From contig OZ024741.1 in assembly GCA_964016885.1 (NCBI GenBank), positions 322,338,001 to 322,402,000 on the forward strand: a DNA stretch of 64,000 nt. Reading direction: 5' to 3'. Of the stretch, positions 24,649 to 25,447 are shown piece after piece. This DNA comes from Eledone cirrhosa. Its lineage: Eukaryota. The notes beneath the pieces were generated by a model. It saw only the letters and a list, made by a program, of their open reading frames with translations, searched no databases and was not told the origin of the DNA. The translations under genes were made by a program, and so were the position numbers. How positions within the stretch are numbered: position 1 is the stretch's first letter; each line of letters opens with the position of its first letter.

Positions 24649-25447
24649 GGATGTATATATAATGTATTTTGCAATACACTTTATGCTTAATTAAAAGCAT
24701 TTTGAAGACCGTAAGCTATTGTTTTTTAGAGTAGTGACAAATTCACTTACTTTGATCTCAGCAAACAGGGGAGATAAGCCGACAAGGCCTTGTTTCGCTT
24801 TTGTTGAAGCTTATCAAGGCTAACTACTCCCACCTGTCTACCGAGATCATTGATGTTATATTCTTATAGAATTCTAGTAAATAATCAGGAGCTGATTATG
24901 CAGAGCGGTTGTTGGTCAGGCAGAAATTAAAAATTAGAATTGGAGCTCTGAAATAGCAATATATATATGGATGTATATATAATGTATTTTGCAATACACT
25001 TTATGCTTAATTAAAAACAATAGCTTACGGTCTTCAAAATGCTTTTAATTAAGCATAAAGTGTATTGCAAAATACATTATATATACATCCATATATATAT
25101 TGCTATTTCAGAGCTACAATTCTAATTTTTAATTTCTGCCTGACCAACAACCGCTCTGCATAATCAGCTCCTGATTATTTACTAGAATTCTATAAGAATA
25201 TAACATCAATGATCTCGGTAGACAGGTGGGAGTAGTTAGCCTTGATAAGCTTCAACAAAAGCGAAACAAGGCCTTGTCGGCTTATCTCCCCTGTTTGCTG
25301 AGATCAAAGTAAGTGAATTTGTCACTACTCTAAAAAACAATAGCTTACGGTCTTCAAAATGCTTTTTATTAAGCATAAAGTGTATTACAAAATACATTAT
25401 ATATACATCCATATTATATATTGGTATTTCAGAGCTCCAATTCTAAT
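24649..25447. mobile_element. Family D: two divergent longer-than-monomer arrays of a 320-nt unit
   Basis: Direct-repeat period 320 in each arm (24649/24969; 25017/25337); arms are reverse complements of each other. Confidence 0.85.
25238..25282 (+). ncRNA. Hammerhead ribozyme, U3-A8 core variant (family D); antisense twin at 24777-24821
   Basis: agcc TTGATAA gctt-caacaa-aagc GAAA caaggccttg TC ggct. Confidence 0.75.

Follow-up and report, generated by a model that had tools for sequence, protein, structure and literature searches.

Non-LTR retrozymes of metazoans have been described as non-coding units of 170-400 nt that form head-to-tail tandems and coexist with Penelope-like elements (PLEs) (PMC7229834; 10.64898/2026.07.22.740005). 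Insertions of endonuclease-bearing PLEs are reported to carry an inverted, 5'-truncated copy in head-to-head orientation, with a tail of 30-40 bp that is often present at one end only, a bias towards (TA)n and microhomology at the junctions; the same sources mention non-autonomous multicopy Chlamys elements and pLTR-driven mobilisation in trans (PMC3846280; PMC8557442). The hammerheads of PLEs, in which a U3-A8 core occurs in Schistosoma, are described there as opposite-strand pairs 100-700 bp apart, and as minimal motifs in the pLTRs of coding PLEs (PMC4209133). In vitro work on the Anolis Poseidon element PAc reports that both strands are cut and extended, that targets are AT-rich and that the protein is a predicted dimer. 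The tail corresponds to the stretch between two internal RT start sites, both located downstream of the hammerhead (PMC11167929). In that system the template was linear; the start site did not differ between strands, ribozyme cleavage was not needed and unprocessed RNA was preferred, three results that we have counted against the reading preferred below (PMC11167929). Circles have been proposed as templates for PLE copying of more than one unit (Cervera and de la Pena 2014, PMC4209133; 2020, PMC7229834). The route by which tandem and inverted PLE insertions arise, and the role of retrozyme circles as transposition templates, are stated as open questions in these sources (PMC8557442; PMC7229834). 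The retrozyme class, the inverted and tailed architecture of PLE insertions and the circle hypothesis are already published.

The locus considered here lies in a stretch of 64,000 nucleotides of Eledone cirrhosa DNA, hereafter the window, and consists of a 320-nt non-coding repeat copied in two arms of opposite polarity:

24639..25016, minus strand: left arm, 378 nt or 1.2 units; its 3' end is the upstream TA-rich end site, without tail
25013..25447, plus strand: right arm, 435 nt or 1.4 units, with the tail at its 3' end
25013..25016, no strand: head-to-head (5'-to-5') junction, a 4-nt overlap common to both arms
25421..25447, plus strand: tail of 27 nt, the interval between two end sites (inferred RT start sites)
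24760..24833, minus strand: type I hammerhead in the left arm, cleavage predicted after 24781
25226..25299, plus strand: type I hammerhead in the right arm, cleavage predicted after 25278, U3-A8 core spanning 25242-25248
24623..24648, no strand: left (TA)n target tract, whose border with the arm end is ambiguous
25448..25519, no strand: right (TA)n target tract
22872..22920, no strand: empty (TA)n site in an inverted paralogue of the flanks

The initial annotation had read this locus as two head-to-head arrays of a 320-nt hammerhead unit, each longer than one unit and each with a single hammerhead, and this description is borne out. The period is 320 nt, the arms are 98.7% identical across 383 nt, and both hammerheads are matched by Rfam HH9 (22 bits, E 0.007, under the gathering score) and by a strict descriptor that gave 0 matches in 5/5 shuffles of the window. 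The whole-window Rfam scan showed no hammerhead among the 150 of 237 matches listed, those being driven by microsatellites. The flanks are the continuation of an older element and are collinear with an uninterrupted, inverted paralogue at 22602-23190 (281/293 and 335/341 identical positions). Because this paralogue keeps an uninterrupted (TA)n at 22872-22920, the locus is a clean microsatellite insertion and not the middle of a larger fold-back. With regard to a target-site duplication, both ends of the insertion sit inside (TA)n. The only frames of at least 120 aa in contact with the locus read through microsatellites at its ends, and an ORF combining RT and GIY-YIG is absent from the element but present in separate families. 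The older element is itself a second hammerhead-bearing family, with copies at 22602-23190 (minus) and 24356-25880 (plus), a head-to-head arrangement and a tail of ~65 nt on one arm; its 1475 candidates include a best 40 that scored 98-100% identical, and no PLE ORF was seen beside 20 loci.

Two sister copies lie in the same window:

55031..55484, plus strand: subfamily 2 copy, 316-nt period, single arm, tail present
22122..22373, plus strand: partial copy of subfamily 3 (period 314 nt) with one arm that stops at the upstream site; core C3-G8

The 316-nt period claimed for the first copy was recovered, as was the stop point that it was said to share with the copy ending at 25447: both end in CTAAT, and a short (TA)n follows 55484. 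The partial copy, previously placed at 22103-22365, is real, although alignment shifts it to 22122-22373. The end used by the left arm and by this copy near 22 kb lies 27 nt upstream of the one shared by the other two. The three loci belong to different subfamilies that are 71-81% identical, and the unit periods of subfamilies 1-4 are 320, 316, 314 and 310 nt. Across the family one predicted type I hammerhead is found per unit. Its core is U3-A8 in 74/75 of the subfamily 1 motifs found and C3-G8 in 24/24 of subfamily 3 and 35/37 of the sampled subfamily 2 cores, while the copy at 55031-55484 has U3.G8. An alignment of 15 rows, which represent three lineages and not 15 events, has 88.9% of cells paired, as against 38-54% in slid controls, and 7/19 pairs are altered on both sides, including the change from C3-G8 to U3-A8. 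This core covariation is a likeness to PLE hammerheads, from which subfamily 1 differs in its helix III of 5 bp; helix III of subfamily 4 is minimal and palindromic. Folded as predicted circles, the units reach MFE z-scores of -3.4 to -6.8 against 60 shuffles, with 54-63% of positions paired.

In a first look, searches of the 3.0-Gb genome returned 1946 candidates for subfamily 1, 2314 for subfamily 2 and 2560 for subfamily 3, the best 40 of each being scored, and an additional subfamily 1 search with a short query gave eight loci. Of the 6 clusters in an unselected 600 kb, 3 are head-to-head, 1 is composite and 2 are single; the same stretch revealed the young, 310-nt subfamily 4. Head-to-head loci make up 38/47 of subfamily 1, 18/28 of subfamily 2, 16/24 of subfamily 3 and 31/38 of subfamily 4, in total 103 of the 137 retrieved, fractions that are possibly inflated since the retrieved loci are top matches. 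The sole plus-minus adjacency in the sets of subfamilies 1-3 lies between two neighbouring insertions (L119). Arms end 3' at two sites 27-34 nt apart, and the tail is carried by exactly one arm at 82 of the 87 classifiable junctions (p=5e-19), with 17 junctions that have an eroded or open end left unclassed. (TA)n follows 102/131 arm ends, and 28/32 direct junctions show exact microhomology of at least 2 nt, against an expectation of 18.7%. The initial annotation had envisaged that breakpoints might be identical across copies, or that the inverted junction might lack support in reads; instead, junction positions are scattered and differ between loci, and head-to-head joints occur in the short-read contigs of one other sample, where all 15 listed of 20 are minus-to-plus. 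Two junction positions do recur (L005/L037 and L010/L048), at long natural microhomologies and with the tail and no-tail arms swapped.

The resemblance to metazoan retrozymes, as these are described in the sources cited, comprises a non-coding unit in the same size range that has a single type I hammerhead, its occurrence in tandem and its coexistence with PLEs, and circle-templated tandem cDNA has been proposed for them too. They differ in that they are described as head-to-tail, whereas most loci retrieved here are two-armed with a tail on one arm, clonality is measured per insertion, and the family is known from DNA. The main text of Li et al. 2026 contains neither 'tail' nor 'head-to', and its single 'inverted' stands within a reference (10.64898/2026.07.22.740005); the passages with 'invert' in PMC7229834 concern invertebrates, not inverted copies. 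We found no paper on two-armed retrozyme insertions or on such insertion-level evidence in a search outside which most subscription papers and supplements fell, and supplements may show inverted copies. The new part is population evidence, drawn from genomic sequence, for what appears to be two-ended, one-site-per-end, clonal multi-turn copying. Arms of the family reach 22 tandem hammerhead units, but the locus at 24639-25447, with a single hammerhead in each arm, would not count as active under the definition of Li et al. 2026 (two or more consecutive hammerhead units). Such a copy could set no monomer free, which would make it a dead end.

The window also contains the 3' part of a coding PLE:

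60321..61058: coding PLE, 3' part, GIY-YIG domain

This part lies within a Neptune-like fragment (58913-61792) whose terminal repeat is inverted and which carries a U3-A8 hammerhead at about 61640-61680. The 150 scored relatives of this PLE are 97-100% identical and combine RT (RVT_1) and GIY-YIG with a U3-A8 hammerhead in the terminal repeat; many copies have overlapping frames of 427 and 777 aa, and two have an open frame of 1176 aa. Other hammerhead-bearing PLE families are also present in the genome. In 6/6 resolved inverted loci of this coding PLE, chosen for opposite-strand matches, one arm carries a tail of 39-42 nt and the other none. The initial annotation had proposed that a non-coding passenger was integrated in inverted, PLE-like fashion. 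The sequences support this: the coding PLEs of this genome have in common with the family its head-to-head polarity, a tail on one arm only, targets of (TA)n and microhomology at the junctions. The same features (head-to-head polarity, a tail at one end, here of 27-34 nt, (TA)n and microhomology) are a likeness to endonuclease-bearing PLEs as published. Unlike them, the passenger lacks an ORF and gave no homology match to any PLE end sampled; its two arms may each be a long multimer, and the data favour two independent primings over self-priming. The homology search covered the terminal repeats and ends of sampled PLE loci (10,596 GIY-YIG candidates, best 150 scored). An end region of the unit that resembled a PLE end was no better than shuffles (P 0.70-0.97). 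A further difference concerns Anolis PAc: here the two sites are used one per end in 82/87 junctions, as given above.

Other repeats of the window were noted in passing. Compared by eye, a 204-nt palindrome at 23170-23424 corresponds to the terminal repeat found in one coding PLE family (L322, L332), and only its left arm has a tail; the palindromes at 407-647, 44510-44843 and 55585-55866 belong to a further hammerhead family, with hammerheads on both strands at 44510-44843. Frames resembling Ty3/Gypsy-type pol were recognised by eye at 31233-34433 and 50536-53016, one of 1066 aa and the other a broken relative with 64% DNA identity; fragments at 8857-13232 and 45624-48894 look by eye like the RTs of non-LTR retrotransposons.

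The element is inserted head-to-head in (TA)n. We consider it probable, on the sequence evidence, that it is a non-LTR retrozyme and that a PLE RT/GIY-YIG protein acting in trans extended both cut ends on one circular RNA. It can be hypothesised that multimeric transcripts self-cleave and that the released monomer is ligated into a circle. The PLE protein, probably as a dimer, would cut both strands of (TA)n, and cDNA synthesis would be primed by each 3' end at either of two internal start sites separated by 27-34 nt; since one start site would be used per 3' end, exactly one arm would carry the tail. Both RTs would pass the ribozyme site and continue for anything from a fraction of a turn up to ~22 turns, and the cDNA ends would then be joined at a microhomology of 2-7 nt and filled in.

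The earlier reading had left open whether reverse transcription proceeded on both sides of a break or switched template. Two-sided priming is supported over a template-switch fold-back, as short loops are not preferred between arms. The self-priming model of Arkhipova et al. 2013, published for rotifer PLEs (PMC3846280), in which one cDNA folds back and one arm is copied from the other, would account for the variants common to opposite arms (19-22%, against 1.6-1.8% between loci), and the locus at 24639-25447 taken alone fits it with a loop of 30 nt. However, the two 5' ends lie at uniformly distributed distances from each other (KS p=0.90), as for unrelated ends, the arm lengths are symmetric (p=0.87), either arm may be the longer one (the tail arm is shorter in 17/43), and at L139 and the PLE locus L147 neither arm contains the other. 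These observations disfavour self-priming as a general route, and we regard it as highly improbable here. An artefact of assembly or library fold-back has a next to negligible probability. Perfect palindromes are indeed common in the window, and the contigs of four read runs (X1-X4), which may come from another individual or species, include none that bridges the exact junction at 25013-25016; but the sequence symmetry stops where the element stops, the arms differ in sequence and end site, the flanks match the empty paralogue, and at least 15 minus-to-plus joints are present in short-read contigs of the other sample. Classic L1 twin priming is a model on one linear RNA. It was rejected for this family, the 5' ends of the tail arms not being clustered by the start of the other arm. 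Arm lengths are negatively correlated in subfamily 1, which probably reflects selection for a full unit.

If both arms are reverse transcripts, the next question is the template. The predicted cut is spanned by 59/69 arms, 5' ends avoid no position, and 3/69 lie within 6 nt of the ribozyme cut where 2.8 are expected (the 5' ends of subfamily 4 were kept out of the uniformity tests, its loci having been picked by rare words at two positions). As 5' ends are not piled at the cut and most arms span it, a cleaved linear monomer does not fit as template, which would therefore be a circle or an uncleaved multimer. It is conceivable, but in our judgement unlikely, that the same two-ended PLE integration used an uncleaved linear multimer or a dimer circle from homogeneous arrays, the hammerhead being dispensable for insertion. 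Long homogeneous arrays do exist as potential sources, and subfamilies 1 and 2 have about six private variants present in all passes against five, in four loci, that occur only at the same pass of both arms. Such same-pass-only variants are what a linear multimer, or conversion from one arm to the other, would leave, and the signal of the older subfamilies is mixed. Subfamily 4 speaks against the multimer: its 22 loci of at least 3 units include 14 fixed haplotypes, with 66 alleles fixed in every pass (counts that omit six complex loci), single-locus alleles are found in up to 23/23 passes, and partial variants fall at the same pass of both arms in 0/18 cases. The fixed haplotypes, the 23/23 alleles and the lack of in-register variants would require repeated passage through a single unit. 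Divergence in this subfamily is 0.33% whether measured within one arm or across the two, against 2.2% between different loci. At G000:C3:150113572-150119147, 16/16 full units are identical (7+9 per arm) and fixed for a CpG-type change that elsewhere is found in one or two units only; a neighbouring locus at a distance of 40 kb has other alleles fixed. Polishing of the assembly could make units artificially uniform, yet single-unit variants are resolved in other arrays. The simplest reading of the subfamily 4 variants would be a monomer bottleneck at each insertion; homogeneous source arrays are a possible source of the uniformity.

Array length would be uninformative about reverse transcription if slippage or unequal exchange had later expanded short PLE-type insertions. 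Local amplification is the view favoured by Li et al. 2026 (10.64898/2026.07.22.740005), and later local duplication is visible in the variant patterns of L036, L045, L292 and L294. As a general explanation we nevertheless find later expansion improbable: arms are longest in the youngest subfamily (median 2.7 and up to 22.5 units, against medians of 1.1, with ascertainment unequal between subfamilies), where both exceed one unit in 16/28 loci, their lengths correlate (rho 0.59, p=0.0009), and several arrays lack any internal variant. More than one turn round a circle, as the initial annotation had proposed, is well supported by the clonal multi-unit arms of the young sister subfamily 4, whereas at 24639-25447 it is only inferred. 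The median arm of subfamily 1 measures 1.1 units, both arms exceed one unit in 10/38 loci, and among the eight short-query loci 1/16 junction arms does so; the present locus stands at the longer end of its subfamily, where two arms of more than one unit are atypical. To our preferred reading, a single circle copied from both cut ends, can be added the proposition that at a double-strand cut a PLE dimer, its two RTs rolling on one circle and each beginning at its own start site, writes a two-armed satellite of up to ~24 identical units in one step and that arrays later shrink to one-unit stumps; for this extension we judge the chances to be evenly balanced.

The family provides genomic read-outs of this process, namely a near-strict rule of one start site per end and one template haplotype per insertion over both arms, and it makes two-ended rolling-circle priming directly testable in the existing in vitro system. 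Each insertion creates a long inverted repeat which, if transcribed, would be a likely source of double-stranded RNA. Should the reading of a rolling dimer be true, it would explain both the tail and the head-to-head structure of PLE insertions, and would offer a one-step route to the birth of a satellite.
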